Positions 1,283 to 14,884 of a stretch of 53,234 bases of DNA are shown piece after piece. Each line of letters opens with the position of its first letter. Positions within the stretch are counted from its first letter, which is position 1. The position numbers and the translations under genes were made by a program. Source of the DNA: a virus (lineage: Duplodnaviria; Caudoviricetes); the IMG/VR virus record IMGVR_UViG_3300002092_000058, positions 1 to 53,234 of that record; one strand, 5' to 3'. The notes beneath the pieces were generated by a model. It did not search any database. It worked only from the letters and a program-made list of their open reading frames with translations, and was not told where the DNA came from.

Positions 1283-4200
1283 TTACATGAAGCTTTCTTC
1301 ATCAGCCAATTCCTTTAGTTTTTTATTGATATTTATTCCGTTTATCGATGATTTTTGGTTAGACAGTCTCTTTTTTACAGACCGCAAAATAGACGCTTGA
1401 TTTATTTTGTCACTAGGATATTTAGTGTTAAATTCCTTAATACTTTCCATAGCGTCTTTTAAATCAGAAGCATTTTTTTCTATTTTAGCATTAGCCGCAT
1501 GATTTAATAGTCTTTGCCTAACATGCTGAACCGCTTGCTCCCTGTTCTTTATTGCTGCGTTTTGATTCATCTGTTCGTTCAGTCCTGATGGACGCATCCC
1601 AATAGCCTGTAATGCTTGTTCATAAGCATTAGTTTCGTAAATTGTTTCGCCTGTTAATGATTTTGCACCGCCCTCATTAATTAATCGGTAAGATTTAGCG
1701 GCCCCGCTAAATGCATTAGGTAGCATTTTTTCTATACCTCTTTCAGTGTTGCCATCACCTATTAGCTTCATTCCAACCAATACATTTTCAGCAACACCAG
1801 CAATTGGGCCAGCTATTGTTTTTAACAGGTAGTAAGCTTGGTCTTTGCCCTCTAGCTCTTTGTCAGGCTCTCTAACCCATAAATCACTTAACGATAATCT
1901 ACTATGAAAATCTGCGCCTGATTCACTTAGTGCGCCTACTGAAATAATTCTTCCTATATCTGGACCTAATGTGTTCGATAACGATTTTCTAATTTCATTT
2001 TCAACATCTTTTGGCTCATCATCGTCATCAAATAAACTTAATAATGCTTGAACAGCCATTAATATTCCACCGATAGGCAAACCAAGAACGCCAGCCGCCG
2101 CTATTTGCGTACCCGACAAGCAAAGCATAATGTTTCTAGCTTCTGCTTTGCGCTCTGGGTTTTTTGATTTAAAGGCGTCATAAAGCGTTTTGCCCCATAA
2201 CCATGTCATGCCCTGGCTAAACATTTTAAACTGAAGCATAACCCGCGCGGCATTGCCTTGGAATAAATCAGGTCTATTAGCACTTGAATAATCTAAGTGC
2301 GTTTCTTTTACAATCTCGTCCGCGTAAGCAATAGATTTTTGCACATCCCCTGTTTTTTCAAACTCCATTCGATAGGCGGTTAATGCGGTTATTTCCCTGT
2401 TAGCCATTTCAACATGATGAAACATATAAGATGAGGCTATCATAAAATCTCGATGCAAAGTACCGCGCTCCACACCTTGCTCAGACAATCCCATTAAATC
2501 ATGCGCTCTTGATCGGTCAAATGTGCCATTGCTTGATAAGGCCATGTAAAGCGCACGCTCACCATCATTTTTTAATCCGTTTAAAATGCTAAAGCCATCT
2601 TGGTCTTTATTGGCAAAAAATGTTTTGGTTGCGTCAGCTAATGCTTTACTTGATTTAACAAAGCCGTGCCGACCAGCGATAACAGGCAGCGCAACACCTG
2701 GGGTTTGCATAAAATTGATTAAGGCAGATGACGGACTAAACCCCAGTATGTAAGTAAATGCCGTTTGATTTGCAATGCTGGAAATCAAATGCACGCTATT
2801 ACCGTCTGCCATATTAGCGTAAGACTTTTGAAGTGCTTTTATAATATCTGCTATTGACTCTGAATCTTTCCCAGCATTAATATAAATGTCCGCATTTTTA
2901 AGAATATCTTTTTGTCGGTCTATGTATTTATTAATAGCAGACTTTAATTCATTTTGATTTGAATAACGGTTAAATTGATTAAGCAATCCCGCATTACCCT
3001 CTATTTCACTAAGCTGTTCGCCGTTATTTAATTGCGTTAATACATCTCTTAGCTTTTCAATGTTTGATTGAATGCGCTCATATTCTTTGGTGCTATCACC
3101 CGCTTTTACCGCCATAGTAATGTCTTTTAAAGCTTGCTTCATCTTTGGCATGTATTTCATTTTTGCAATTTGCTTACCATCATGAAATGCTTTTTTAGAA
3201 AACGATCTTAACGCATCAGTAGCAAAGCCCGGTGTCTTCTTTCTATGAATAAACCGTTTGCGCATAGAAGACTCAGGCAATGCGGTCAAATAAAGCTGAA
3301 AGATTGAATCCTTTAGCATGTCGCCTTGCTCGACATCCAGCTTATCAATCAAATCATTTATATCATTAACAAAACCGACATCAATCCCCTCTACTTTTTG
3401 AAAGTCGGTTAGCGTTTTACCAAAACCATTGATATCAATGCCATTGTCTTTAAGCTGTTTGATAAATCGCTCTTGTGCGCTCTTAGTTTCAAACATATTA
3501 AAGCCTTCAGCATGGTCTACCCAATACGGACCAAAACGCATTAACGGGGAGTACGGACCTTTAATTGCTTTAAACTTTTTATTAAGTTCTTTTACCATGC
3601 GCTTCTTATCTTCAATTGACGCATTAGAGTTATCAAGCTTTTCAATAATAGAGCTTAGCAAATCATTCAAGCGGTCTTTATGGAACTTTTCAGCGTCATC
3701 AAGCACTTTTTTAGAGTTAGGCAATAGCTTATTATAGTTAGACACTAGCTCGTCCCATACAGCAGTATCCGCGTCTTCTGGTTTTGTTTCTCTCGGGTCA
3801 AGCTCTAATACGGTCATACTGTTCATCATGTCGGCTAATCGGTGCATTTCTAATTTATTACGCGCCGCCCACACTTTATCCATTGGCTTATAATTAGGCA
3901 CAAGGCGTTGCCAACGATTAGCAATATCATCCCCTTGTTTGTGAATATTGGCTTCGGTTACATCGTAATTATTGCGCTCAACTGAAAAGTTTTTGAATAT
4001 AGGCAAAGTTTCCTCGCCCAGTTTAACCAATTGATTCTGGGTTAATGCGCTTAATCCCAGCGCTTTAATATTAATTCTACCTGTATCTTTAATATCCCGT
4101 AAGCGGTCTTTTAATTCTTCAGTAGTTGTTTTTGGTAATGCGGCTGTGTCGCTCCAAATATCCTCTAATGGTGCGAGGCTGAATCGAATGTCGTTGTTTA

Positions 4201-7200
4201 CGCTTGTCATTAAGCGGGACGGTTGCTGACTCGCCATTTTGGATCCATTATTCCAAACCACAATTGCATTACTATCTGCTATATCCTGCGTAACACTAGG
4301 CGATGTAAACTTCCTTTCTGTCTTGGTAAAATTTCGCCTTGCTTCAACATTTCTGGCTTCTATTTCTCCAGCATGTCTTTTATAGTCATAAAATAATTTA
4401 GCAAATTCCTCCTTACTTGGTGGCGTAGAGATATTACCAAACGGACTGTCGCTTCTTATTGATTCTATTTCTCTTTGCAAGGATGTCCATTTTCTTGATC
4501 CATCATTTTCAGAGTCTTCCAGTGCTTTTTCCTTTAATTCAATATATTTTTCATCTTCATATAATTCAAGATATTCTTCATCTTTATAGTTAAATGTTGA
4601 TCTTATTTGTTTTATTTTGTCAAAATAAATATCTCTAGCACGAATCATTTCTTTTTCGTACTTTTTTTGCTCCTCTAGCAATCTTTGCTTTTTTTCATAA
4701 TTCGTCTCTTTTTTGTTTTCATTAATTTTGTGTAGACTAGACCCCCATGCAAAATCTTCTATGTGCTGTATTCCATGTTGTATTTCATGCAGTAAAGCAG
4801 ATAAGGCATTGTCGCGCGTACCTGACTGAATGAGTATGCTTTTTTCTGACGGATCATAGTGCGACATAGCATTTGAATACGACGGACCTATGTTTAAATC
4901 AATAGGCAAATTATATAGCTCAGGATAAGCGTCAAATAAATGAGGGTGATTCAATACATCACCTAGAATCATATTTTTTGCATTTAGGGTTTTGTCTTTA
5001 TTAATAAGCCCTGCTTTAAATCTTGCGTTATTATCATTTATTTCAAATCGCCACTTTCCGTCAACAGCTTTAAACCACCCCGTATCCTCTCTAATTTTCT
5101 CTTTATCTTCACCAGCATCCATTCGTTGCTGTGCTGCGGCTAAGGAGTTATGGTTTGCTGTGTTGGCATTTTGACCAGCAAAGCCATATTTAATTGCTTC
5201 ATCTTCTCTACCAACATTATCAAACAACAAAGACTCTGGCGCAGACTTAAGTGCACTAGTAGCCATATCGCGTAATTCTTGTTCAGTAAGCTTATTAGCC
5301 CATTGCGAATACTTAAACTTGTCTTTACCAATAAGAGTATTTCCAATCGCCCTAACTAACCGCCTAAATGCTTCTATAATTCTTTGCGCTAAAGTTGAGG
5401 TAGGATTGTTTTCTAAAAAATACGCCAAAGCTTCTTCAGTAATATGCTCTTCTTTAGTATCAGCAGGTACGCGGTTAAAGGCTGCTTTTACTCTTGGGTT
5501 TCTTTCTTTTAACTGTTCAAATTGCGTCAATAAGGCTTTAAACTCAGCATTAGATTTACCTAATTGCAAAGCATGTACGCCGATCTCATGAAGCATTAGC
5601 CCCTTAATAGAATCAGATGACTGATCTTGACTAATATTGTCATGAACAAAATAGGTTGTGTCATTAGCAGGATTGTAAAAAGCAATAACATGACCGTCTT
5701 TACTGTACTTAATATCAAACTGCCCTGATACGACATTATCACCTGGTTCTCTTGGGAGGTCTTGAATTATTTCACCCGCTTCATCACGACTAATAACCTT
5801 AAACTTGCCAGTCGCCATTAATCTATCAGTCCAGCCGTCACCAAAAGTTTTATCCATGATGGATTTAATGGCAGAAGATAGGGATTGTTTTGTGTGGGTG
5901 TTAGATGGAGCAGTTGGAGTAGTCGTTTTACTAAATTTAATACCTTTGCTTTCTAAGAATTTTTTACCTTCTTCTTTTAAAATTGGTTGCATTGAACCAA
6001 TAATTGGGTAAATAACTCTCAACAAAGACCCTATTTCATCCATAGATACTCTGGCTTGCATTTCTTTACCACGAGTTATAAATGGACCAGTAATCTCTGT
6101 TACACGCTTGTTTCCAAAAAGAATAGAACCTTTAGCTTTTGATGACGGCGCATATAAAGTAGCGCCAGTAGACGTAACCATTAACCTAAAGTCGTTATTA
6201 GCTGACCGTATTGATCTATTTGTAGCATTAGAATTATTAATATAATCCATTGCTATATCAAGGTTTAAAAAGATAACAGGCTGTTTTTCTATTGCTTGTT
6301 TTAAATCAAATTTCTTAGGCATTAATACGCCTTGATTAATCTCACCTTTATCATTTGTGTAATTAATAATTTGACCAGTTGAATCAAATCCATAAGCCGC
6401 AAGCATATTTCCAGTTAAAATAACTCGATGTTCTCTTGATGTTGATTGTCCTTCATCTAAGGCGGTTTTAATAGAGTTTAAATTCCCTCTATTTACTGTC
6501 CAACTCATTCCGTTTGTAGCGCCCCAAGATAACTGGCTTAATGGTAACGTAACCTGTCTTGTTGCATCAGCAACATAAACGGTCATTTTCCATTGACCCT
6601 GAGCAAAGAAACTTTTTGCCTGTCCTTTTCTTTCAAATTTACCAACTATCCCTTCATACTTAAGACCATGAGGCGATGTTAATACAATAGGTTTAGATGG
6701 GTAAAAATTAGAAAACATTTGAACAAGTTGATTTCTTTGATGTTCCAGATTATCTTTCAATGCTTGTTTTCTTTTTACTTCTTTATCATCAATTTCTTCA
6801 ATTTTTTCTATTTCAGATAATGCTTTTTTGTATTCTTCATTTACCGTTTTAATAAATGATTCTTTAGCAGAATAAGAAGATTTGTCATCTTTAAAATCTG
6901 TTTTTTCTAACAATGAATTAATTTGATCTATTGTATAAGGCTTACCTAGTTTTTTAACATCTACTATTTCAGCTTCTACACCAGCCGCAAATGGTGATGT
7001 ACTTCCACCTAGTTCTTCGACAATATTCTCTGTATGAACAATTTTTGCATCTAAATCCATCGCATGAGCTTCTAACTGGTTTTGCCCAGTTTTTGTAAGA
7101 ATCTCTATATAATCGTTATATTCATCCTCTATCATTTGATAAAGCATTTCCTGGTCTTTTAGTTTAAGCACAGGAATAAGGCCTGTAACTTTAGCCATAG

Positions 7201-10200
7201 CATTTTCTTTATATAACCCGTTATTGCCTTGCGCTAATGGTTTACCAAGCATCTTGTGTAGCTCTGGATTATCAGTCATAACCGATGCAGCTATTTCATT
7301 TCCATAATCATTCATAAAATCTGGAACATCTTTAGCTTTTACGGCAGACTCTTTACCAGCAGTAGTATTAGCGTTAAGCATTGCCATTTTTTTAGCAAGA
7401 ATAGCAGAGGGTCTTTTTTCAGCAGGAATATTAGCTGTTAATTGAGAATAAGAAGGTAAATGAAGCTGACCTGTTCTATTGATACGCCCAAGCATTTGCA
7501 TGTGAGTATCAATATTTAATTCGGGCTGAGCAATGATCATGTGACGTTTTCTAGTATCACCACCTACTTTAGGACTAGAATGTAATGATAATCCTGTAGC
7601 ACCAGACTGATTAAGAATAATTACATCTAGTTTTCCATTATTAAAATCATTTACTGTTTTTCTTTTTCCTGCGGTACTTAATTCTTGTGCAGGTCTTATT
7701 TTATATATAGGAACATCACCGGAATAATCAATAATGTTCATACGTCCAGTAATTTCACCTGATTTATAACCTTCTTTTGCTAAAGCATTATGAATGGCAT
7801 CAATAGGCGACATTTTGTAACTACTAAAATCAAAGTTATTTATTTTACTTTGTATTTTTTTATAAAAACTTGAGGCGGCTTTTCCTAATTCATCATCATC
7901 CAATGGTCTTTTTATTTTATTACCCATTGCATCAGTTTCAGTAATGCGTCTTGATCTTTCTAGATACCTAGATAATAAATCACCGCAGTTTAGATTTATT
8001 ACATCACCAACATTTAACCCAACTTCATCAGCGTACTCTTTAATAACTGATCCCATTGTGCTTGATAAAGCTATTACAGGTTTTTCACCTCGCTTTAAAG
8101 CTTCTAGCGCTTCATCAATAGTTGGCTGTACTTTTAACATTAATAACATCTGCCCAATCATATTGTGCATGATGCTAGTAAAGTTTTGAGAATCAATACC
8201 AGTTTTACCTATTGCATTATCAGCGCTTACTTGGCTTGCCGATGCTTTTGCCTCATCTTTTAATGTACTTACCGCAATCGATTTTAAATCATCAAAAATC
8301 ATAATGTCGCGCATTACTTCCGCAACTTTTTCAGCAAAGTTTCTATCTACGTCAACAAAAGATGTTCCATAAACTATACCGTCAAACGATTTTTCTCTAC
8401 GAATATATTGACCTGATTCCGCAAGCATAGAAGCAACAGCCTGTTGTAAAGGGACGCCTCCGGCTACCATTGCTTGTTGTAATGATGCGGTATCTGCAAC
8501 TAATCCCATATCAGTTTTAGAATATAAATCTAATACGTCAGGTCGTTTAGCGTATGTAGCAGAAGAATAAAATACGCCTTTAGCTAATGACACAAGTTCT
8601 CTAGCAACAGCAGCTCTGCCTGTTTTTTCACCTTCTTCTGGTGCGCTTTTTCCTTGTTTAGGTCCAGCAGAAGTTCCGCCAGCATTATGACTTTCATCAA
8701 GAATCAACAAACAACCATCAGCTAATTTTTTTAAAAATTTAGTGCGTGTTGTAATTTCTCCTTTTACAGTTTGCATTTGATTGTAAGTAGTAAAAATAAC
8801 ATCACCTTCGGACAACTTGCCTGAATCAATCATGCTATTCATATTTTGTTCTTGTTTTTTACCAGAAGGCATACTAATAAATTTACCTCGTTTTTCTGGT
8901 ATCTTCTCTCCGCTCTCTTTAGCTTTTAATGATTCTTCATACCACGCATTAGCTTCATTATCTATAGGGATATTTTCGCCTGAATTTGTAGCAAAAGGTT
9001 TAACATCAGGCATGCCAATATCAGCTAAATCTCTAAGCATATCACCATAAAGATTAGGTTTTTCAGTTACAAATATTGGAGTCATTTTATTTAATATGGC
9101 ATAACGAATCATTGCCGCGTTTACACGACCTTTACCAACCCCTGTCTGATCACCAATAATAAAACCTTTACCGGATATAATATTATCTAAAGCAAGCGCA
9201 ATAGCATCTACTTGCTCTGCACTAAAATATTTACCAATTTCTTCTTTTTTGTAATTTAGTAAGTTAGCAATATAACTATCTATATCTCCATGTGCATCAA
9301 TAATTCTTTGTAATGCTTTTTCTATAGATGACTGCATGTTTACAGGTACAAGAGTACCTACAGGATTAACGGTACTTGCTGGAGTATAATCTGCTTGAAA
9401 TTTGTTTTCTACGGTATTAGGCTTGTTAGTAAGTCTAATGGGTCTGTTGCTTGTATTATCGTTTGACTCATCAACATTACTCTCGATGACTTGTCCGTTT
9501 GTTTCAACACTTCGCTCAGATCTAAACAAAACTCCGACACGTTTTCGGTTCTCACTTCTCCGTCTATTTGAGAATTGTCTAATGCCAAAATTGCTTCCTG
9601 CATCACCTGTTTCTGTAGAGTTGGATTGAGCTTCATCAATAGTGATTTCAACTTTTGACACGCTTGGTCTATTATCTGGTAGTTCATTTTTTAATTCCTT
9701 AATTGTATTAATAACTCTTGGCACATCAGCTGCAGGCAATCTTAATTTAGATTTGTCTTTACCATGTATAACAATTACATCAACAGGCCACTCAGCGCCT
9801 TGTTTAGCGTAAAGTTTTCCAGATACCGTAAAATGATCAACTACGTTATAGTCGTTATATAAATTATAGAAAAATGTACGCTTAGCTTTTCCATTGTATG
9901 CGTCTGAGCGTCCTTCTTGTGATAAATGACCCGCAGGCCCACCAATAATTAAAACAGCTTTGCCATCATCGTCCATGCCTTTTAATGTATTCATAACGAT
10001 GGCATGATCTACTTCATTAGTAGAATACATTGGCTTAATGCTATAAGTTATTGTGTTTCCATTATCATCCTTAACTGCGCCAAATGGAGGATTAATAATT
10101 ACAACATCCGACAAACCATTTTTTGTAAAACTATGTGTAACAGCGTTTTCTGTTGTGACATTAAACCCTTGCTCTTTTAACGACCTTGCTCTATCAGGAT

Positions 10201-13200
10201 TTAATTCATTTACAGTAGCTAACTCTGGATTAGCAGCTATTAATAACGCACCATTTCCAGCAGTAGATTCTGTGACGGTTGTTTTTTTAGTAATACCCGC
10301 TAATTCAGATGCAAGATACGCTAATGGCAATGGAGTTGAATATGCTTGCTGTTCAATGCTAGTGCTAGTTCTAACATTAAGGGATGGCATTTGGCCTGCT
10401 AATTTAACTAAAGCGTCAAATGTTTGAGATTCTGATAAACCTTTATCGACTATTTGTTTTCCGGCTAATACACCTGCAAGTTCTATAGCTTCATCAGCTT
10501 GTTTAGCTTCTATAGTACCAGCAACTATGTTTTGATCTGTTAATGCTTTTCTTGCCTGAACAATAGTGTCAAAAGATTGACCGGCTAATAATAAATCAGC
10601 AAATCTTTGTGAAGCATCAAATCCAAAGATTGATTTAACCTCTTTCTTGGATTCCTTTTCAATTTCTTCAATAGAATCATATTGCAAAGCCTCAGCTTTA
10701 TTGCCGCCAATTTCTTTTGCAATATTAATATAACCAGCTTGCAAGTTTTCTATAGATAATTTATCTGCAATTTCATCACCAGCTAGTTGACGTATTTGCG
10801 ACATTACATGTTGAGCCGCATCTTTAAATTTAATGTAACCCATTTTAGCCGCGATACGGAATATCTTTGACATAATAGGTATAAGCCGCGCTTCTTCTTC
10901 TTCTGTAAGATTTGTTTTTGCTCCAAGTAATGACGCTAATTCACCAATAGCTTGTCCCATTTGGTCTTTAAGGTCTGCCATTTCATCAGCAAGACTGTCA
11001 ATTCCTTTATCCGCTTCTGCTTTTTGCTTGGCTTTTAATTCGGTTTCTGATTCTTTTCTTGCTCGCTCGGCTTGTTCTCGCTCATGTTTTGCAAGTTCTG
11101 ATTCTGTGTATCCTTGGGGTATTTCTTCTTCAGGTACAGCAACGCTTTGTGTAGGTCTTTTTTCTTCATTAGTAATTCCCAGCCATTCTTCAAGTTCATT
11201 AAGTGTAATATCTGACCCTTTAACGTCAAAAGGAATCGAGTCGTCAAACTCAACTAAAACCCTGTTAATGTCGTCAATTGTTAGCTTACCATTTTCCATT
11301 TCCGCTTCAAGATGATTGACAATCATATCTTGAGCGTGAGTTAATTCAGTGTCGCTTTCGTAGCTGCCTCGCTCCTCATCTTCAGTGGCTAAATCATGTA
11401 GGCTTTCAAGTATAGCAACTTGTTTTGGCCTTAATTTTTTTCCAGCCTTATAATCACTTACTGCTAATTTTACCTCTCTAACCGATGGCGTCGAACTGTA
11501 AACATCACCATTTTCTTTATATATTAAAAACCTTCCATCCTTAAACCATTCAGGATTAACAGAAGGCGCTCTGCCTGTAATTGTGCCATGTTCATCATGA
11601 ATTAATGATACACCACCACCTTCTACTAAATCATTTGCATAAGATTCAATAGCGGGGTGGGATTCTTTTTTTTGCGCAGGCTTAAGCGCAGCTAAATTTG
11701 CTTGACTGTTGCTTGACTGGCTAACTGTTTCTGGCGCATTTTCTACGGATTCTGTGGCTTCCGTGCTTGATGGTTGCTTGATTGCTTCTTGTTGTTCTTG
11801 CGGTTCACCGTATCTTTTTACAAACGTATCAATGGATTTTATTAATAAAGTTTTTGATGGCTGAATAATAGTATGTTTTCCGCCGTTTTTATTAACTGCT
11901 TCAGCTTTCCACGTTTCATCATTGTTTTTTGTTATGGAATAACCTTTATAAGGTTTATTTGTCTTTGTTGATGATACTTGTTGTTGCTCACTAAACAAAT
12001 ATTCTTCTGCGGCATCTTTATCAGCTTGGCTAGGCTTTTCTATGTTAGCCTCAAATTGACGGGCATTAAATTCATCACCCCTATGCTTTGCTTCATCAAG
12101 CGCATTTTTCATAAGCCATTTATCAACGGCTTTTATGTGGACTGGTTTTATATTGCCTGTAGCTGTCTTAAATTTAGGGAACGTGCTTGTTTCTCTGCCT
12201 GATGATGTTAATACAGACTCTCCCGGCTCTAACTTTATGCCTACATACCCTTGTCTTTTAGTTGGGGTGGCAATCTCTTCTTTTGCGCTTTCTGTAACTA
12301 GATCGGGTTTTTTTTCAGTTGGTGGCAATTTAATAGCATCATCAGCTTGCCATTCATAACCACCTTTATCAATATAGACATTACCATCTAAATGCTGAAC
12401 TGGCGTACCATCGTTTAATTCATGAGTCGGCTCAAAGTTGTTATTATTCTCCTGCTCACTTGGTCTAGGTGTTGATTCCTGTTGTATTGGTACATCAGTG
12501 CCTGAGGATTGCTTCTCATTTGATACGCGCCCATTGGTTAATTCTCCTGTAGTTGGCTCGGCAACTGACTGATTGTTTTCGACTGCTCCTTGATTTTTTG
12601 CTCCATTGACCTGACTTGTTCCTGCATCAATAGGGTTGAGTTCTGTAGTGATTCCAGTATTTGCTTCTGTAGTAGTGGCTCTATCATTGTTTTGTTCTGC
12701 TAATCTCTCTTGTTTTTCGCGCTCTCTTTGCTCTTGCCATGCAATATTATTGGAATCAGTCTCAGGGATTCGAGAAGAACGTACATTTATTTCAGTTAAA
12801 TTGTTTCTATTTTTTACGGCTACTGGATTAAAATTTTCATCAACAAATTGGTTTCTATCAATTTCTCTAAGATATTGTCCATCAGGCGTAACATGGGTTG
12901 CTAAAAAATCTTGTTTAGCTAAAGGCAACGCAACACCAGCTAAAGCCCCTGTGTTCTCTGTCCGTCTTTCTGTGGGTTTGTTTGATGTTATGGTTGGCGG
13001 AATAATTGGAATATCGGCAGGTGAATTTAAATCTGCATTAGCTCCCGCAATGGCTTCATCAACATTCTTTGCTTTAGACAATAATCCGCCAGTTCCACCT
13101 ATCCCAAAACCAGCCATACCGCCTTGCATACCTGCGTTATTGGCTTGATTTAATGCTTCAGGTGTAAATGGATCTTTGCCTTCGCCTTTTAGTTCAGCTA

Positions 13201-14167
13201 ATGTTTGTAGATATTCCTCACCGTATTCTAGTGGTGCAGCTTCCAATGCACCAACACCACCCCTTGCAACACGTCCTGTTATACCCGTCATTTTACTTAA
13301 TACTTTGCCGACTGGTAAACCGCCTGTAATAGCTTTAATACCAAGCACTTCACCAAGCCCTTCAAGGCTACCTGCTACCGCACCCATGCCAAGAGCTAAG
13401 CCATGTTGCTTAGGCGTAATAACCTCGCCTGAATGTTCGCTAGTTACCTCGCCGCCAATTTCCCCCGACTCTTGACCTGTAGCTAATGCGCCAATAGCGG
13501 CAATTCCTGCGTATTTTTCAACCTTATTGGCGACAATATCACTCGCTAATCGAGCCGCCTCTTCTTCTGTTAATTTTTCTGTGCCTAATTTTGTAGCGTT
13601 TTCTGCTAATAACTTTTCAGTTTGCGCTACCGTTGCGCGCTCCATCATATTGGTAAATGCGGATTTTGCTACTGCTTTCCCCAATAACCCGCCTGCGCCA
13701 CCTGTAACAGAGGCAATGCCTAATTGACCAACGCCAGCACCTAGTGAGTGGGCTAAAAAATCGCCCATGTGTGACCAATCGCCCTCAATTCCTTTCTGTT
13801 TAGCATAATCCCAGTTATCAGACGGCCTAGCAGTTTCCTGTAATTCTTTTTGCTTTTCAATATATCCAGCTTCCCCCGCTTTACGAATCCCTGTAGCAAT
13901 ACCGCCCTGACCAAATGCCGTTTCTCCTAAAGCACCAATACCGCTAAGCGCACCATAGCCAGCTTGTTTAATAGCGGGGACTTGCTCTTTAAGTCCGCGT
14001 ATAAATTCGCCGTCAGCTTTGGGGTTTTTTACACCAAGATTGTCGTATATTTTTTGAATAGGTACATTAGGTGTGTATTCTTTGTGCAAGATAGGGATTA
14101 ATTCCTCGTTTGGAACATCCGCATATTCTGGAAATAACGCTCTTAATTTATTTAGTTGTTGCGACAT
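1283..14167 (-). CDS. giant polyvalent virion-ejected protein, DarB-like: N6-adenine methyltransferase + strawberry-notch-type SF2 helicase + two zincin-like HExxH motifs + LPD23-like + PLxRFG region
   Basis: 4294 aa; ESTAGNG and IINPPFG (MTase motifs I and IV); GDQTGVGKGR, LDESHN, SSATY, QMLGRINRTGQ (SF2); HEIGVH; TGWFKAVDGKWRFEIND plus HEIQH; YSPLMRFG; last gene of the ejection-protein cluster. Confidence 0.85.
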   Translation of the reverse strand: MSQQLNKLRALFPEYADVPNEELIPILHKEYTPNVPIQKIYDNLGVKNPKADGEFIRGLKEQVPAIKQAGYGALSGIGALGETAFGQGGIATGIRKAGEAGYIEKQKELQETARPSDNWDYAKQKGIEGDWSHMGDFLAHSLGAGVGQLGIASVTGGAGGLLGKAVAKSAFTNMMERATVAQTEKLLAENATKLGTEKLTEEEAARLASDIVANKVEKYAGIAAIGALATGQESGEIGGEVTSEHSGEVITPKQHGLALGMGAVAGSLEGLGEVLGIKAITGGLPVGKVLSKMTGITGRVARGGVGALEAAPLEYGEEYLQTLAELKGEGKDPFTPEALNQANNAGMQGGMAGFGIGGTGGLLSKAKNVDEAIAGANADLNSPADIPIIPPTITSNKPTERRTENTGALAGVALPLAKQDFLATHVTPDGQYLREIDRNQFVDENFNPVAVKNRNNLTEINVRSSRIPETDSNNIAWQEQREREKQERLAEQNNDRATTTEANTGITTELNPIDAGTSQVNGAKNQGAVENNQSVAEPTTGELTNGRVSNEKQSSGTDVPIQQESTPRPSEQENNNNFEPTHELNDGTPVQHLDGNVYIDKGGYEWQADDAIKLPPTEKKPDLVTESAKEEIATPTKRQGYVGIKLEPGESVLTSSGRETSTFPKFKTATGNIKPVHIKAVDKWLMKNALDEAKHRGDEFNARQFEANIEKPSQADKDAAEEYLFSEQQQVSSTKTNKPYKGYSITKNNDETWKAEAVNKNGGKHTIIQPSKTLLIKSIDTFVKRYGEPQEQQEAIKQPSSTEATESVENAPETVSQSSNSQANLAALKPAQKKESHPAIESYANDLVEGGGVSLIHDEHGTITGRAPSVNPEWFKDGRFLIYKENGDVYSSTPSVREVKLAVSDYKAGKKLRPKQVAILESLHDLATEDEERGSYESDTELTHAQDMIVNHLEAEMENGKLTIDDINRVLVEFDDSIPFDVKGSDITLNELEEWLGITNEEKRPTQSVAVPEEEIPQGYTESELAKHEREQAERARKESETELKAKQKAEADKGIDSLADEMADLKDQMGQAIGELASLLGAKTNLTEEEEARLIPIMSKIFRIAAKMGYIKFKDAAQHVMSQIRQLAGDEIADKLSIENLQAGYINIAKEIGGNKAEALQYDSIEEIEKESKKEVKSIFGFDASQRFADLLLAGQSFDTIVQARKALTDQNIVAGTIEAKQADEAIELAGVLAGKQIVDKGLSESQTFDALVKLAGQMPSLNVRTSTSIEQQAYSTPLPLAYLASELAGITKKTTVTESTAGNGALLIAANPELATVNELNPDRARSLKEQGFNVTTENAVTHSFTKNGLSDVVIINPPFGAVKDDNGNTITYSIKPMYSTNEVDHAIVMNTLKGMDDDGKAVLIIGGPAGHLSQEGRSDAYNGKAKRTFFYNLYNDYNVVDHFTVSGKLYAKQGAEWPVDVIVIHGKDKSKLRLPAADVPRVINTIKELKNELPDNRPSVSKVEITIDEAQSNSTETGDAGSNFGIRQFSNRRRSENRKRVGVLFRSERSVETNGQVIESNVDESNDNTSNRPIRLTNKPNTVENKFQADYTPASTVNPVGTLVPVNMQSSIEKALQRIIDAHGDIDSYIANLLNYKKEEIGKYFSAEQVDAIALALDNIISGKGFIIGDQTGVGKGRVNAAMIRYAILNKMTPIFVTEKPNLYGDMLRDLADIGMPDVKPFATNSGENIPIDNEANAWYEESLKAKESGEKIPEKRGKFISMPSGKKQEQNMNSMIDSGKLSEGDVIFTTYNQMQTVKGEITTRTKFLKKLADGCLLILDESHNAGGTSAGPKQGKSAPEEGEKTGRAAVARELVSLAKGVFYSSATYAKRPDVLDLYSKTDMGLVADTASLQQAMVAGGVPLQQAVASMLAESGQYIRREKSFDGIVYGTSFVDVDRNFAEKVAEVMRDIMIFDDLKSIAVSTLKDEAKASASQVSADNAIGKTGIDSQNFTSIMHNMIGQMLLMLKVQPTIDEALEALKRGEKPVIALSSTMGSVIKEYADEVGLNVGDVINLNCGDLLSRYLERSRRITETDAMGNKIKRPLDDDELGKAASSFYKKIQSKINNFDFSSYKMSPIDAIHNALAKEGYKSGEITGRMNIIDYSGDVPIYKIRPAQELSTAGKRKTVNDFNNGKLDVIILNQSGATGLSLHSSPKVGGDTRKRHMIIAQPELNIDTHMQMLGRINRTGQLHLPSYSQLTANIPAEKRPSAILAKKMAMLNANTTAGKESAVKAKDVPDFMNDYGNEIAASVMTDNPELHKMLGKPLAQGNNGLYKENAMAKVTGLIPVLKLKDQEMLYQMIEDEYNDYIEILTKTGQNQLEAHAMDLDAKIVHTENIVEELGGSTSPFAAGVEAEIVDVKKLGKPYTIDQINSLLEKTDFKDDKSSYSAKESFIKTVNEEYKKALSEIEKIEEIDDKEVKRKQALKDNLEHQRNQLVQMFSNFYPSKPIVLTSPHGLKYEGIVGKFERKGQAKSFFAQGQWKMTVYVADATRQVTLPLSQLSWGATNGMSWTVNRGNLNSIKTALDEGQSTSREHRVILTGNMLAAYGFDSTGQIINYTNDKGEINQGVLMPKKFDLKQAIEKQPVIFLNLDIAMDYINNSNATNRSIRSANNDFRLMVTSTGATLYAPSSKAKGSILFGNKRVTEITGPFITRGKEMQARVSMDEIGSLLRVIYPIIGSMQPILKEEGKKFLESKGIKFSKTTTPTAPSNTHTKQSLSSAIKSIMDKTFGDGWTDRLMATGKFKVISRDEAGEIIQDLPREPGDNVVSGQFDIKYSKDGHVIAFYNPANDTTYFVHDNISQDQSSDSIKGLMLHEIGVHALQLGKSNAEFKALLTQFEQLKERNPRVKAAFNRVPADTKEEHITEEALAYFLENNPTSTLAQRIIEAFRRLVRAIGNTLIGKDKFKYSQWANKLTEQELRDMATSALKSAPESLLFDNVGREDEAIKYGFAGQNANTANHNSLAAAQQRMDAGEDKEKIREDTGWFKAVDGKWRFEINDNNARFKAGLINKDKTLNAKNMILGDVLNHPHLFDAYPELYNLPIDLNIGPSYSNAMSHYDPSEKSILIQSGTRDNALSALLHEIQHGIQHIEDFAWGSSLHKINENKKETNYEKKQRLLEEQKKYEKEMIRARDIYFDKIKQIRSTFNYKDEEYLELYEDEKYIELKEKALEDSENDGSRKWTSLQREIESIRSDSPFGNISTPPSKEEFAKLFYDYKRHAGEIEARNVEARRNFTKTERKFTSPSVTQDIADSNAIVVWNNGSKMASQQPSRLMTSVNNDIRFSLAPLEDIWSDTAALPKTTTEELKDRLRDIKDTGRINIKALGLSALTQNQLVKLGEETLPIFKNFSVERNNYDVTEANIHKQGDDIANRWQRLVPNYKPMDKVWAARNKLEMHRLADMMNSMTVLELDPRETKPEDADTAVWDELVSNYNKLLPNSKKVLDDAEKFHKDRLNDLLSSIIEKLDNSNASIEDKKRMVKELNKKFKAIKGPYSPLMRFGPYWVDHAEGFNMFETKSAQERFIKQLKDNGIDINGFGKTLTDFQKVEGIDVGFVNDINDLIDKLDVEQGDMLKDSIFQLYLTALPESSMRKRFIHRKKTPGFATDALRSFSKKAFHDGKQIAKMKYMPKMKQALKDITMAVKAGDSTKEYERIQSNIEKLRDVLTQLNNGEQLSEIEGNAGLLNQFNRYSNQNELKSAINKYIDRQKDILKNADIYINAGKDSESIADIIKALQKSYANMADGNSVHLISSIANQTAFTYILGFSPSSALINFMQTPGVALPVIAGRHGFVKSSKALADATKTFFANKDQDGFSILNGLKNDGERALYMALSSNGTFDRSRAHDLMGLSEQGVERGTLHRDFMIASSYMFHHVEMANREITALTAYRMEFEKTGDVQKSIAYADEIVKETHLDYSSANRPDLFQGNAARVMLQFKMFSQGMTWLWGKTLYDAFKSKNPERKAEARNIMLCLSGTQIAAAGVLGLPIGGILMAVQALLSLFDDDDEPKDVENEIRKSLSNTLGPDIGRIISVGALSESGADFHSRLSLSDLWVREPDKELEGKDQAYYLLKTIAGPIAGVAENVLVGMKLIGDGNTERGIEKMLPNAFSGAAKSYRLINEGGAKSLTGETIYETNAYEQALQAIGMRPSGLNEQMNQNAAIKNREQAVQHVRQRLLNHAANAKIEKNASDLKDAMESIKEFNTKYPSDKINQASILRSVKKRLSNQKSSINGININKKLKELADEESFM
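9409..9687 (-). CDS. nested +1-frame gene (92 aa) inside the giant gene, between MTase and helicase
   Basis: SD TAAGGA 8 nt before ATG; product looks helical/amphipathic; the host frame is atypically Arg/Ser/Asn-rich over this span. Confidence 0.6.
   Translation of the reverse strand: MNYQIIDQACQKLKSLLMKLNPTLQKQVMQEAILALDNSQIDGEVRTENVSEFCLDLSEVLKQTDKSSRVMLMSQTIIQATDPLDLLTSLIP
11035..11169 (-). CDS. candidate nested +1-frame gene (44 aa, MKKKDLHKALLYLKKKYPKD...)
   Basis: GGGA 7-8 nt before ATG; lies in a linker of the giant protein. Confidence 0.35.
   Translation of the reverse strand: MKKKDLHKALLYLKKKYPKDTQNQNLQNMSENKPSEQEKNQKPN
12415..12534 (-). CDS. candidate nested +1-frame gene (39 aa, MGAYQMRSNPQALMYQY...)
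   Basis: Strong SD AGGAG before ATG; starts 3 nt after the stop of the 12538..12687 nested ORF. Confidence 0.4.
   Translation of the reverse strand: MGAYQMRSNPQALMYQYNRNQHLDQVSRRIITTLSRLMN
12538..12687 (-). CDS. candidate nested +1-frame gene (49 aa coiled-coil, MIEPLLQKQILESLQNSTLLMQEQVRSMEQKIKEQ...)
   Basis: Heptad-like sequence; in tandem with the next nested ORF; SD is weak. Confidence 0.35.
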   Translation of the reverse strand: MIEPLLQKQILESLQNSTLLMQEQVRSMEQKIKEQSKTISQLPSQLQEN

Positions 14168-14186
14168 GGTCTATCTCTTTAAAATT

Positions 14187-14217
14187 TTGTCCTGATTTTA
14201 TCATAAAATGCTACAAT
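14187..14217 (+). promoter_or_regulatory. extended -10 promoter with overlapping 15-bp palindrome
   Basis: TGcTACAAT at 14209-14217; ATTTTAT-C-ATAAAAT at 14195-14209. Confidence 0.5.
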
Positions 14218-14318
14218 ATCGCAGTAGCTAGGTTTGCAAGCCGAAATGTGACTCGTCATCAGCGCAGTTAGTAGAAGCGCAAAAAGAAATTGCAGAGGCT
14301 CGTAAACAAGATGAAATC

Positions 14319-14492
14319 ATGAACGCTATTATTCGAAAAGTACAAGAAATGCGCAATAAAACAGCAAAAACATGCTGCTCTGACATGTTTTTTAGTGATG
14401 GAACAATTGCTTACAATAAAGAGAAAGGGTTTGATCTTTTGCGCAGTTACGATGACTTGCTTTATGCCTTAGGGCATTGGATAAATAAATAG
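14319..14492 (+). CDS. hypothetical protein (57 aa), probably a 5'-truncated remnant
   Basis: The frame is open from ~14232 (AQLVEAQKEIAEARKQDEI) with no start codon until ATG 14319. Confidence 0.45.
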   Translation: MNAIIRKVQEMRNKTAKTCCSDMFFSDGTIAYNKEKGFDLLRSYDDLLYALGHWINK

Positions 14493-14505
14493 TGAGAAAA
14501 TAAAA

Positions 14506-14853
14506 ATGAACATAACAGAATTTACAAGAACAGAAGATAGTTTTCCCGTAGAAGGTGAGCTAACTATTGCTTTTTTACCTATGCTTGAATGTCCAGAAAC
14601 TAAACAAGTTACAGGCATGACGGCTGTAGCGGTTTATTATGGAGAGGGGTCGGCTTTTAATGTTGGCAAGATAAAGAATGAAATTTCACCAGGCTGGTAT
14701 TACGCTGACGCAGTGCCTTATCGTGGTGAAGATGGCGTTGCTAGATTATCAAATACATTAATTCCATTGCGCTTTGAGCCGTTGCTGTGGAAACAATTAA
14801 GTATTTACAAAGAAGCGCCAAAGCCAAAGCTGACAGTTATACAAAAGCATTAA
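14506..14853 (+). CDS. hypothetical moron protein (115 aa)
   Basis: ATG with A-rich leader; opposite strand to the structural operon; followed by hairpin CCGCT-TTTT-AGCGG. Confidence 0.7.
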   Translation: MNITEFTRTEDSFPVEGELTIAFLPMLECPETKQVTGMTAVAVYYGEGSAFNVGKIKNEISPGWYYADAVPYRGEDGVARLSNTLIPLRFEPLLWKQLSIYKEAPKPKLTVIQKH

Positions 14854-14884
14854 TAAATAATCCGCTTTTTAGCGGCTTTGTAAA

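Follow-up and report, generated by a model that had tools for sequence, protein, structure and literature searches.

Genes embedded in the +1 frame of a larger gene are known in phages. In phage lambda, the spanin gene Rz1 is wholly embedded in the +1 frame of Rz, and in phage phiX174 the overprinted genes B and E lie within A and D, respectively. Here we describe a nested gene in the window, by which we mean the whole 53,234-nucleotide stretch of the viral record IMGVR_UViG_3300002092_000058 (Duplodnaviria; Caudoviricetes). Positions 9409-9687 (-) are, judged from comparison with related sequences, very probably a real protein-coding gene that lies one base out of frame inside a giant gene for a polyvalent protein, between its methyltransferase and helicase modules. 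The novelty lies in a nested gene that is conserved widely, encodes a family not described before and is set in a stop-free tether.

The locus resembles Rz/Rz1 in that a complete small +1 gene with its own start signals is placed on the same strand and in one mRNA with its host. In Rz, however, both readings encode functional, interacting segments, whereas the host reading here is an unconstrained tether (ratio of nonsynonymous to synonymous substitution, dN/dS, of about 1.3) in a protein of 4294 residues. Rz1 is a lipoprotein, whereas the nested protein is predicted to be a soluble acidic helical bundle. The overprinted genes of small viruses, which are among the subjects reviewed in PMC8227390, offer another likeness, because in cases of the phiX174 type two proteins are read from the same bases and one reading carries most of the constraint. 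Those cases belong to genomes under tight size limits, whereas the nested gene is found in a phage of at least 53 kb and on large plasmids. Unlike them, its family also occurs as ordinary non-overlapping genes.

The giant protein itself is of the DarB type. In phage P1, the Dar accessory proteins Hdf, DarA, DdrA, DdrB and Ulx govern the incorporation of DarB into capsids. They are a precedent for a virion-borne methylase-helicase that needs small helpers from the producing cell, but the helpers there are separate genes. No relation of the nested protein to the P1 Dar helpers emerged from library searches, and no search went beyond those. DarB is the archetype of the methyltransferase-helicase dyad (Iyer et al. 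2017, PMC5512222). The host gene shares with DarB-type dyads an NPPF methylase followed by a superfamily 2 (SF2) helicase, LPD domains, giant size and a phage origin, and its helicase is of the strawberry-notch type, the rarer one. Phage P1 was not retrieved by the dyad query. The main text of PMC5512222 contains no occurrence of 'overlap' or 'frameshift' and describes no nested gene, and literature searches, mostly at the level of abstracts, found no gene inside polyvalent proteins.

Few weapons of phages and plasmids are as large or as widespread as polyvalent proteins, whose commonest enzymatic core is the methyltransferase-helicase pair. In one large clade, the 'linker' of this dyad appears to be a second gene. 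It adds a conserved, unannotated family that is predicted to be folded and has no fold or family match. Annotation pipelines miss the nested gene or, in one RefSeq plasmid, apparently split the giant gene for it. The locus is also a clean natural case of dual coding, in which one reading has been reduced to a stop-free tether.

Position and start signals of the nested gene

The elements of the nested gene in the window are as follows.

9409-9687 (-): nested gene, frame +1 of the giant gene, 92 codons plus stop, ATG start
9696-9701 (-): Shine-Dalgarno-like TAAGGA, 8 bases upstream of the nested ATG; main-frame codons Lys-Glu (AAG GAA)
9691-9693 (-): +1-frame stop TAA, two codons ahead of the nested ATG

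A reading of this DNA made without database searches (hereafter the sequence-only reading) had pointed to TAAGGA-N8-ATG as the opening of a +1 open reading frame (ORF). The hexamer is present at 9701-9696, followed by the ATG at 9687-9685 (-), whose A is the middle base of the Asn1494 codon in the gene of 4294 codons. The translation is identical to the 92-residue product quoted there (MNYQIIDQ...LLTSLIP), and the main-frame stretch NFGIRQFSNRRRSENRKRVGVLFRSERS, which was said to cover the same span, is present in the giant gene. The nested gene is wholly contained in the giant gene and occupies precisely the spacer that separates the methyltransferase from the strawberry-notch helicase. From stop to stop, the +1 frame measures 93 codons, and the ORF from the ATG 92. 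Because of the +1 TAA two codons upstream, the nested ATG is the first possible start, and entry from further upstream is ruled out. The Shine-Dalgarno (SD) sites of the phage's other genes are of the AGGA, GGAG or GAGG type.

A conserved segment of the giant protein, I/L-K/E-E-L-K-N-E-L (window 9689-9712 (-), residues about 1486-1493), coincides with the nested SD and ATG, and it is missing in three dyads that lack the nested gene. Part of the conservation of the giant protein at these residues is probably nucleotide-level conservation of the start signals. The recurring L-K-E-(K)-L-N-E would largely be the footprint of the SD (AAG GAG) and of the ATG (AAT Gxx).

Within this genome alone, the nested ORF is longer than any other out-of-frame ORF on the sense strand of the giant gene, the runner-up having 54 codons, and its ATG is one of only 4 among 222 out-of-frame ATGs of the giant gene that follow a 5-base SD core. 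The linker of the window has one +1 stop, whereas 4.61 are expected from its amino acids (P of one or fewer, 0.03). When codon usage is scored after training on 30 further genes from the window, the +1 frame reaches +0.15 over the nested ORF and -0.22 or lower in 44 other 92-codon windows of the giant gene. The main-frame score over the nested ORF is +0.37, near the low end of the main-frame range. The evidence from the single genome is suggestive and only mild; the comparison with relatives is decisive.

Start signals and open frames in homologous linkers

An alignment of the region retrieved 160 loci, 80 viral and 80 metagenomic. Both anchors flanking the linker lay in one frame in 151 of these, the nine lacking one anchor were dropped, and collapsing identical linkers left 124 distinct ones. 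A +1 ATG is found within codons -2 to +7 of the same anchor in 116 of the 124 linkers, as compared with 51.7 expected from synonymous shuffles. When an SD core (GGAG, GAGG or AGGA, 4-16 bases upstream of the ATG) is also demanded, 103 linkers qualify against 20.8 expected. The anchor ATG opens an ORF of at least 85 codons in 111 linkers (range 88-160, median 131), and 103 of these ORFs end within -20 to +5 codons of the end of the linker. A +1 stop immediately precedes the ATG in 53 of the 111 loci and lies within three codons of it in 67.

The profile of the nested product matches 152 of 163 loci, always on the strand of the giant gene, and 144 of the matches were verified to be in the +1 frame inside the linker. 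The remaining eight have no usable anchors or correspond to P0124. Across relatives, the flanks of the loci that carry the nested gene are 33-68% identical, yet the gene occupies one fixed place.

None of the 124 linkers contains a main-frame stop, whereas the +1 frame holds 0-6 (mostly 1-2, at the ends) and the +2 frame 2-27. Summed over loci, the linkers have 200 +1 stops where 282 are expected (ratio 0.71; 0.98 in the flanks), and +2 stops are in excess, at 1455 against 1078.5 expected (ratio 1.35). The depletion of +1 stops together with the excess of +2 stops fits T-rich main-frame third positions that would supply hydrophobic residues to the +1 reading.

Frame-specific selection

The same 279 bases are maintained in both readings, in the +1 frame for a protein predicted to be folded and in the main frame only for continuity. 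In the +1 frame, differences per site at codon positions 1, 2 and 3 amount to 0.038, 0.044 and 0.096 for pairs of at least 90% identity and to 0.227, 0.185 and 0.339 for pairs of 70-90% identity. Position 3 of the +1 frame is thus the most variable, which makes the main-frame third position the least variable. The adjacent helicase shows the ordinary main-frame pattern (0.189, 0.103 and 0.489 at positions 1, 2 and 3).

Median dN/dS, calculated by the NG86 method for 129 pairs of 75-97% identity, is 0.37 in the +1 frame, 1.32 in the main frame and 1.30 in the +2 frame. The value is lower in +1 than in the main frame in all 129 pairs and also in 15 of 15 disjoint, ungapped pairs of equal length. 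There are no main-frame stops in 123 loci, whereas preservation of nothing but the +1 protein with its codon usage would lead one to expect 176.1. In protein alignments, residues 1496-1588 of the giant protein have no invariant column, although the flanks are highly conserved, and the high-scoring segment pairs of BLAST with more distant homologues of the giant protein break exactly at the linker. The frame of the giant gene over the nested gene serves as a flexible tether that is kept only stop-free.

These results bear out the view in the sequence-only reading that the odd main-frame linker is a frame constrained by an overlapping gene, for it has a dN/dS of 1.32, no invariant column, no predicted structure and no stops. 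The comparison of dN/dS per frame had been suggested there as a check, and its outcome (0.37 in +1, 1.32 in the main frame) favors the gene. Closed +1 frames in relatives, absence of an SD and conservation of the main frame only had been named as signs to the contrary; the relatives show the opposite. The proposal of a genuine overlapping gene between methyltransferase and helicase is thus upheld by the frame-specific selection, the start signals and the predicted fold.

Sequence family and predicted structure of the product

The +1 frame is under purifying selection for what is predicted to be a folded, acidic five-helix protein of 90-160 residues. The +1 products align as one family, which comprises, among the listed rows of the alignment, short forms of about 90-105 residues (the type of the window) and long forms of about 131 residues that carry an extra N-terminal segment. 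The family alignment contains 79 members; three of the 82 representatives (L024, L036 and L071) were excluded, since in them the first ATG lies 40, 41 and 50 codons out of place, respectively. In blastp comparisons, the product of the window (P0001) matches the +1 products of L081 (41% identity, 5e-10) and L001 (2e-8), whereas the main-frame linker of the window matches only L081 (2.5e-6) and frame +2 has no match at all. Against a profile from which the window was left out, P0001 scores 26.8 bits (E 4e-10) and the main-frame reading -1.1 bits.

AlphaFold2 predicted five helices from the 79-member +1 alignment, with a predicted local distance difference test (pLDDT) score of 88.5 and a predicted template modeling (pTM) score of 0.79. 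The main-frame reading of the same 79 stretches, used as a control, gave a pLDDT of 60.0, a pTM of 0.17 and no secondary structure. The earlier impression that the product reads like a folded helical protein agrees with this model. The family is acidic: the median isoelectric point (pI) is 4.55 and the median net charge -8, the pI is below 6 in 94% of 123 products, and that of P0001 is 4.5.

No family in Pfam, PHROGs, NCBIfam or PADLOC matched P0001, and no feature of known toxin-antitoxin families was found in it with PADLOC, Pfam and NCBIfam. Across the 79 members, no Pfam family occurred in more than three. A FliT match in one of the 79 (E 0.059) was dismissed as noise. Foldseek comparison of the +1 fold with the PDB gave 103 matches, none of them at E ≤ 1e-3 (best 2.6) and no DNA mimic among the listed rows; the BFVD database likewise gave nothing at E ≤ 1e-3, and the best E value of the family profile against PDB sequences was 0.65.

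The DNA of the region has no match among GenBank phages. The sequence-only reading had looked to tblastn for phage homologues of the product, but P0001 had no match in phages at E ≤ 10. A word-index search of 5.8 billion proteins found none at E ≤ 1, the nearest relatives being about 40% identical. Related loci in viral contigs were not found with P0001 alone and appeared once the alignment served as the query. Prediction of a complex between residues 1200-2100 of the giant protein (31 rows) and the nested protein (79 rows) scored 0.00 in two runs whose controls did not fold, a score that weighs neither for nor against binding.

Dyads without the gene and database annotation

The +1 frame is closed in the linkers of dyads that lack the gene. 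In Acinetobacter phage MD-2021a, it has 12 stops and a longest open run of 34 codons; in a Serratia plasmid and a Pseudomonas plasmid, there are three +1 stops each, with longest runs of 55 and 24 codons, respectively. The dyad is present on 451 plasmid records; of the five inspected, two have no nested ORF. A nested ORF matching the profile was found in Chroococcidiopsis sp. CCNUC1 pB (3.9e-18) and Gloeobacter morelensis pGMOR1 (1.1e-13). In pGMOR1 (L171:1028-1477 (+)), RefSeq calls the nested ORF as the hypothetical protein WP_230844304.1 and lets the strawberry-notch coding sequence (CDS) begin at 1474, but the main frame is open from 13 to 2973, across the nested ORF. It seems that the giant gene was divided in the annotation so that the small one could be fitted in.

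Two further linkers have long open +1 frames. In a Thalassospira lucentensis plasmid (L173:1037-1453 (+)), whose polyvalent gene has 6154 codons, an open +1 frame of 139 codons fills the linker. The 135 linker codons contain a single +1 stop, and the profile gives no match to this frame at E ≤ 10; it may belong to a member that has diverged very far, or it may have arisen independently. The cultured Bacteroides phage BS-TP4 (PQ571277.1; L162:1243-1602 (+)) has an unannotated 119-codon +1 ORF in the linker of a 5391-codon gene. This ORF scores 3.5 bits against the family profile, which is not significant, and the main-frame linker is again rich in Gly, Arg, Thr and Glu.

Only the giant CDS is annotated in the two phage records and in three of the four plasmid records that carry the giant gene. 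The earlier claim that gene callers miss the nested gene therefore holds for most of the records inspected but not for pGMOR1, in which it is annotated.

Relatives of the family outside the nested copies

Searched against 1.84 billion representative proteins, the family profile gave 716 matches at E ≤ 1e-3 and 184 at E ≤ 1e-10. We examined 155 family proteins, namely the 150 best matches and five related entries. Of these, 120 are at most 160 residues long, and several come from contigs of 1-4 kb; the proteins from short contigs are probably nested copies that were called as genes since the giant gene is cut off.

Other members are in-frame parts of unrelated genes. WP_128000194.1 of Piscinibacter defluvii (425 residues) consists of a T5orf172/GIY-YIG domain, a zinc ribbon and then the family domain, all in frame. 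The island in which it is located also carries an integrase of the phage type and a restriction-modification gene of the MmeI type, and its GIY-YIG part matches the PADLOC candidate PDC-S57. Further in-frame forms are an ankyrin-repeat fusion (P0165), the ankyrin part of which matches PADLOC PDC-M72A, and a tandem duplication of the domain. Two two-domain architectures recur, with three and four distinct representatives; phmmer searches of the PDB with the two-domain relatives P0163 and P0277 gave nothing meaningful.

In the order containing Piscinibacter, 4 of 301 genomes have matches. Nested copies account for two of these, within open frames of 4572 and 4308 codons; the other two, the Piscinibacter gene and the free-standing P0277, are not nested. 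P0277 (genome G051, contig 57; L168:5326-6381 (+) and neighbours) has an N-terminal domain, a run of poly-Asp/Glu and then the family domain. Its neighbours are a PD-T4-3-like GIY-YIG gene (6e-16), an HKD+Snf2 gene (5e-131), an integrase and a Toprim/DUF3987 primase, a gene set typical of a P4-like satellite. These surroundings look like a satellite-type island with defence cargo. With two contexts and two fusions, the association of the free-standing relatives with GIY-YIG nucleases in islands is no more than a lead.

A sample of genomes across the phylum had a match in the centre genome only (1 of 401). An alignment search for longer, fused forms found none among 8000 candidates, which is weak evidence by the tool's own rating. 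No related loci were found in viral contigs with P0163 and P0136, tblastn of P0123 against phages and plasmids found none, and the best ESM Atlas score for P0123 was 0.80 (B12-binding_2), below the level that the tool treats as a lead. P0208 (192 residues) begins with 81 residues that correspond to the methylase end (giant protein 1398-1481, 45% identity) and are followed, without a change of frame, by the nested domain. Either this fragment contains a sequencing frameshift, or P0208 is a variant occurring in nature with the domain joined to the methylase.

Is the nested frame a gene?

A chance ORF would arise if a hydrophilic linker were poor in T at codon position 2 and if the SD and ATG were by-products of Lys-Glu and Asn-Glu. 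Some of our observations are of this kind and weigh against a real gene. As +1 stops need T at main-frame position 2 (Leu, Ile, Val, Met), a hydrophilic linker has few of them: amino acids alone predict only 2.3 +1 stops per linker, 1.6 are seen, and the per-locus P for +1 openness has a median of 0.52 and falls below 0.05 in 4.8% of loci. By itself, +1 openness is weak evidence. When the giant gene was shuffled, frames +1 and +2 held an ATG-ORF of at least 92 codons somewhere in 8.3% of 1000 codon permutations and in 7.4% of as many synonymous shuffles, so that within this genome the length of the nested ORF is not significant. The main-frame codons that contain the SD and ATG indeed encode K-E and N-E. 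Moreover, 78 of the profile-matched loci also went into building the profile, the alignments of the 129 dN/dS pairs were built on +1 peptides (a bias mitigated by the ungapped disjoint pairs), and the locus pairs are phylogenetically related, many coming from one clade. We nevertheless regard a chance ORF as highly improbable. It does not predict a dN/dS of 0.37 against 1.32, lower in +1 in 129/129 and 15/15 pairs, a least variable main-frame third position, or an ATG with SD in 103 of 124 linkers where the same amino acids lead to 20.8. The predicted fold is confident in the +1 frame only, in-frame homologues occur in unrelated genes, and the +1 frame is closed in the linkers of dyads without the gene. 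A purely compositional account of the +1 openness was rejected, as it leaves frame-specific selection, start signals and fold unexplained.

The +1 domain could also belong to the giant protein itself, if ribosomes shifted to +1 on entering the linker and returned to the main frame on leaving it. The domain does lie exactly between two domains of the giant protein, and P0208 joins the end of the methylase to it in frame, though possibly through a sequencing frameshift. Such a double shift would, however, make the absence of main-frame stops (none against 176 expected) pointless in a bypassed frame, and it requires two shifts. It is also at odds with the conserved SD and ATG and with the +1 stop that stands directly before the ATG in 53 of 111 loci and within three codons in 67, and we consider it extremely improbable. 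Just as improbable is the idea that translation of the nested ORF matters and its product does not, for instance by tuning how ribosomes move, or how the mRNA folds, midway through a gene of 12.9 kb. Conserved start signals would suit this idea, but purifying selection on amino acids along the whole ORF, the confident predicted fold and the occurrence of the domain in frame elsewhere argue against it. With a real gene as the preferred reading, ribosomes would start independently at the internal SD-ATG on the mRNA of the giant gene. Each time the giant gene is transcribed, the producing cell would by this route also make the small protein, and nesting would make the small gene inseparable from the giant gene by recombination.

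Possible roles and origin

We tentatively suggest that the small protein works with the methyltransferase-helicase pair, as an accessory subunit, a regulator or an assembly or packaging helper; weighing against this is that the role is drawn from linkage, charge and two genomic contexts only. Flagellar chaperones of the FliS/FliT type are small acidic helical bundles encoded beside a large cargo that travels unfolded. The nested protein would be comparable in being small, acidic, all-helical and placed beside a large cargo, with no sequence or structural match between them. The narrower proposal of the sequence-only reading, a toxin-antidote-like arrangement in which the small protein inhibits a toxic, ejected giant protein and itself stays out of the virion, is purely conjectural.

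A real gene might instead have an independent job and merely hitch-hike in the giant gene for timing and linkage. Its acidic product would then counter host defences by itself, either by mimicking DNA or by acting as a decoy or poison subunit towards those host defence proteins that share the domain; we think this rather unlikely. The products are strongly acidic (median pI 4.55, net charge -8), as are DNA mimics of the Ocr/ArdA type. Relatives are found in integrase-bearing islands, one with an MmeI-type restriction-modification gene and the other with the PD-T4-3-like GIY-YIG and HKD+Snf2 genes, and two of them match the PADLOC candidates PDC-S57 (WP_128000194.1) and PDC-M72A (P0165). A weapon's role of polyvalent proteins in conflicts (PMC5512222) would also suit such a factor. 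On the other hand, none of the 103 PDB matches reached E ≤ 1e-3, so that no fold match to a solved anti-restriction protein was obtained, and the free-standing contexts examined are two only. The fixed place inside the dyad, between flanks of 33-68% identity, fits functional coupling to the dyad, though nesting alone would freeze the place as well.

Whichever role applies, the domain of the family may be a conflict module, whose free-standing relatives are fused to or placed beside GIY-YIG nucleases in integrase-bearing islands with restriction or defence genes. It points to a link between the polyvalent weapons of phages and nuclease-bearing bacterial islands. The function becomes testable, as the small protein can be eliminated by mutations that leave the giant protein unaltered.

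The phrase 'overprinted 92-aa gene' may have the direction wrong, in that the +1 frame is the selected reading, predicted to be folded, and the giant linker its passenger. The small gene may have been overprinted on a linker, or the tether on a small gene that already existed; the dyad, however, is far more widespread than the small protein. It is conceivable, though in our view improbable, that the five-helix protein was born de novo in the tether of the dyad, became a partner of the dyad and was then captured by bacteria as a GIY-YIG-coupled bait domain for an incoming polyvalent protein. Birth by overprinting would explain the absence of a fold relative, and if this course of events were true, the same module would serve both sides of the arms race.

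The giant gene and its neighbourhood

The host gene and its modules in the window are as follows.

1283-14167 (-): host gene, polyvalent protein P0002, 4294 codons, 12,885 bases, at the end of the structural gene block
9689-10570 (-): adenine-methyltransferase module, residues about 1200-1493; NPPF at 1359-1362 (window 10082-10093)
9404-9688 (-): main-frame linker, residues about 1494-1588; low-complexity passenger reading, kept open
7271-9403 (-): strawberry-notch-type SF2 helicase module, residues about 1589-2299

Pfam identifies AAA_34 (residues 1666-1944, 3.6e-19) and Helicase_C_4 (residues 2136-2299, 8.3e-19) in P0002, and also LPD23 and LPD39, which are domains specific to polyvalent proteins. 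No Pfam methyltransferase match was found on P0002 at E ≤ 0.01, and PF02384/PF07669 are present in its homologues. An alignment of 31 homologues shows no variation at N1359, P1360, P1361, F1362 and G1363. PMC5512222 sets out both the definition of the dyad and the NPP(Y/F) motif found in its methylases, and it also describes polyvalent proteins as conflict weapons. P0002 combines the features by which Iyer et al. (2017) define the dyad, namely an NPPF methylase, a C-terminal SF2 helicase, LPD domains and a giant multi-domain protein. Relatives of P0002 at E ≤ 1e-3 number 1457 among 1520 scored candidates.

Terminase, portal/adaptor, and major head and tail proteins are encoded in the neighbourhood of the giant gene, and its position at the end of this structural block suggests that the giant protein may be packaged into the virion and delivered. 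In the gap upstream of the giant gene (window 14168-14884), there is a 115-codon plus-strand ORF at 14506-14853, which runs opposite to the surrounding minus-strand genes.

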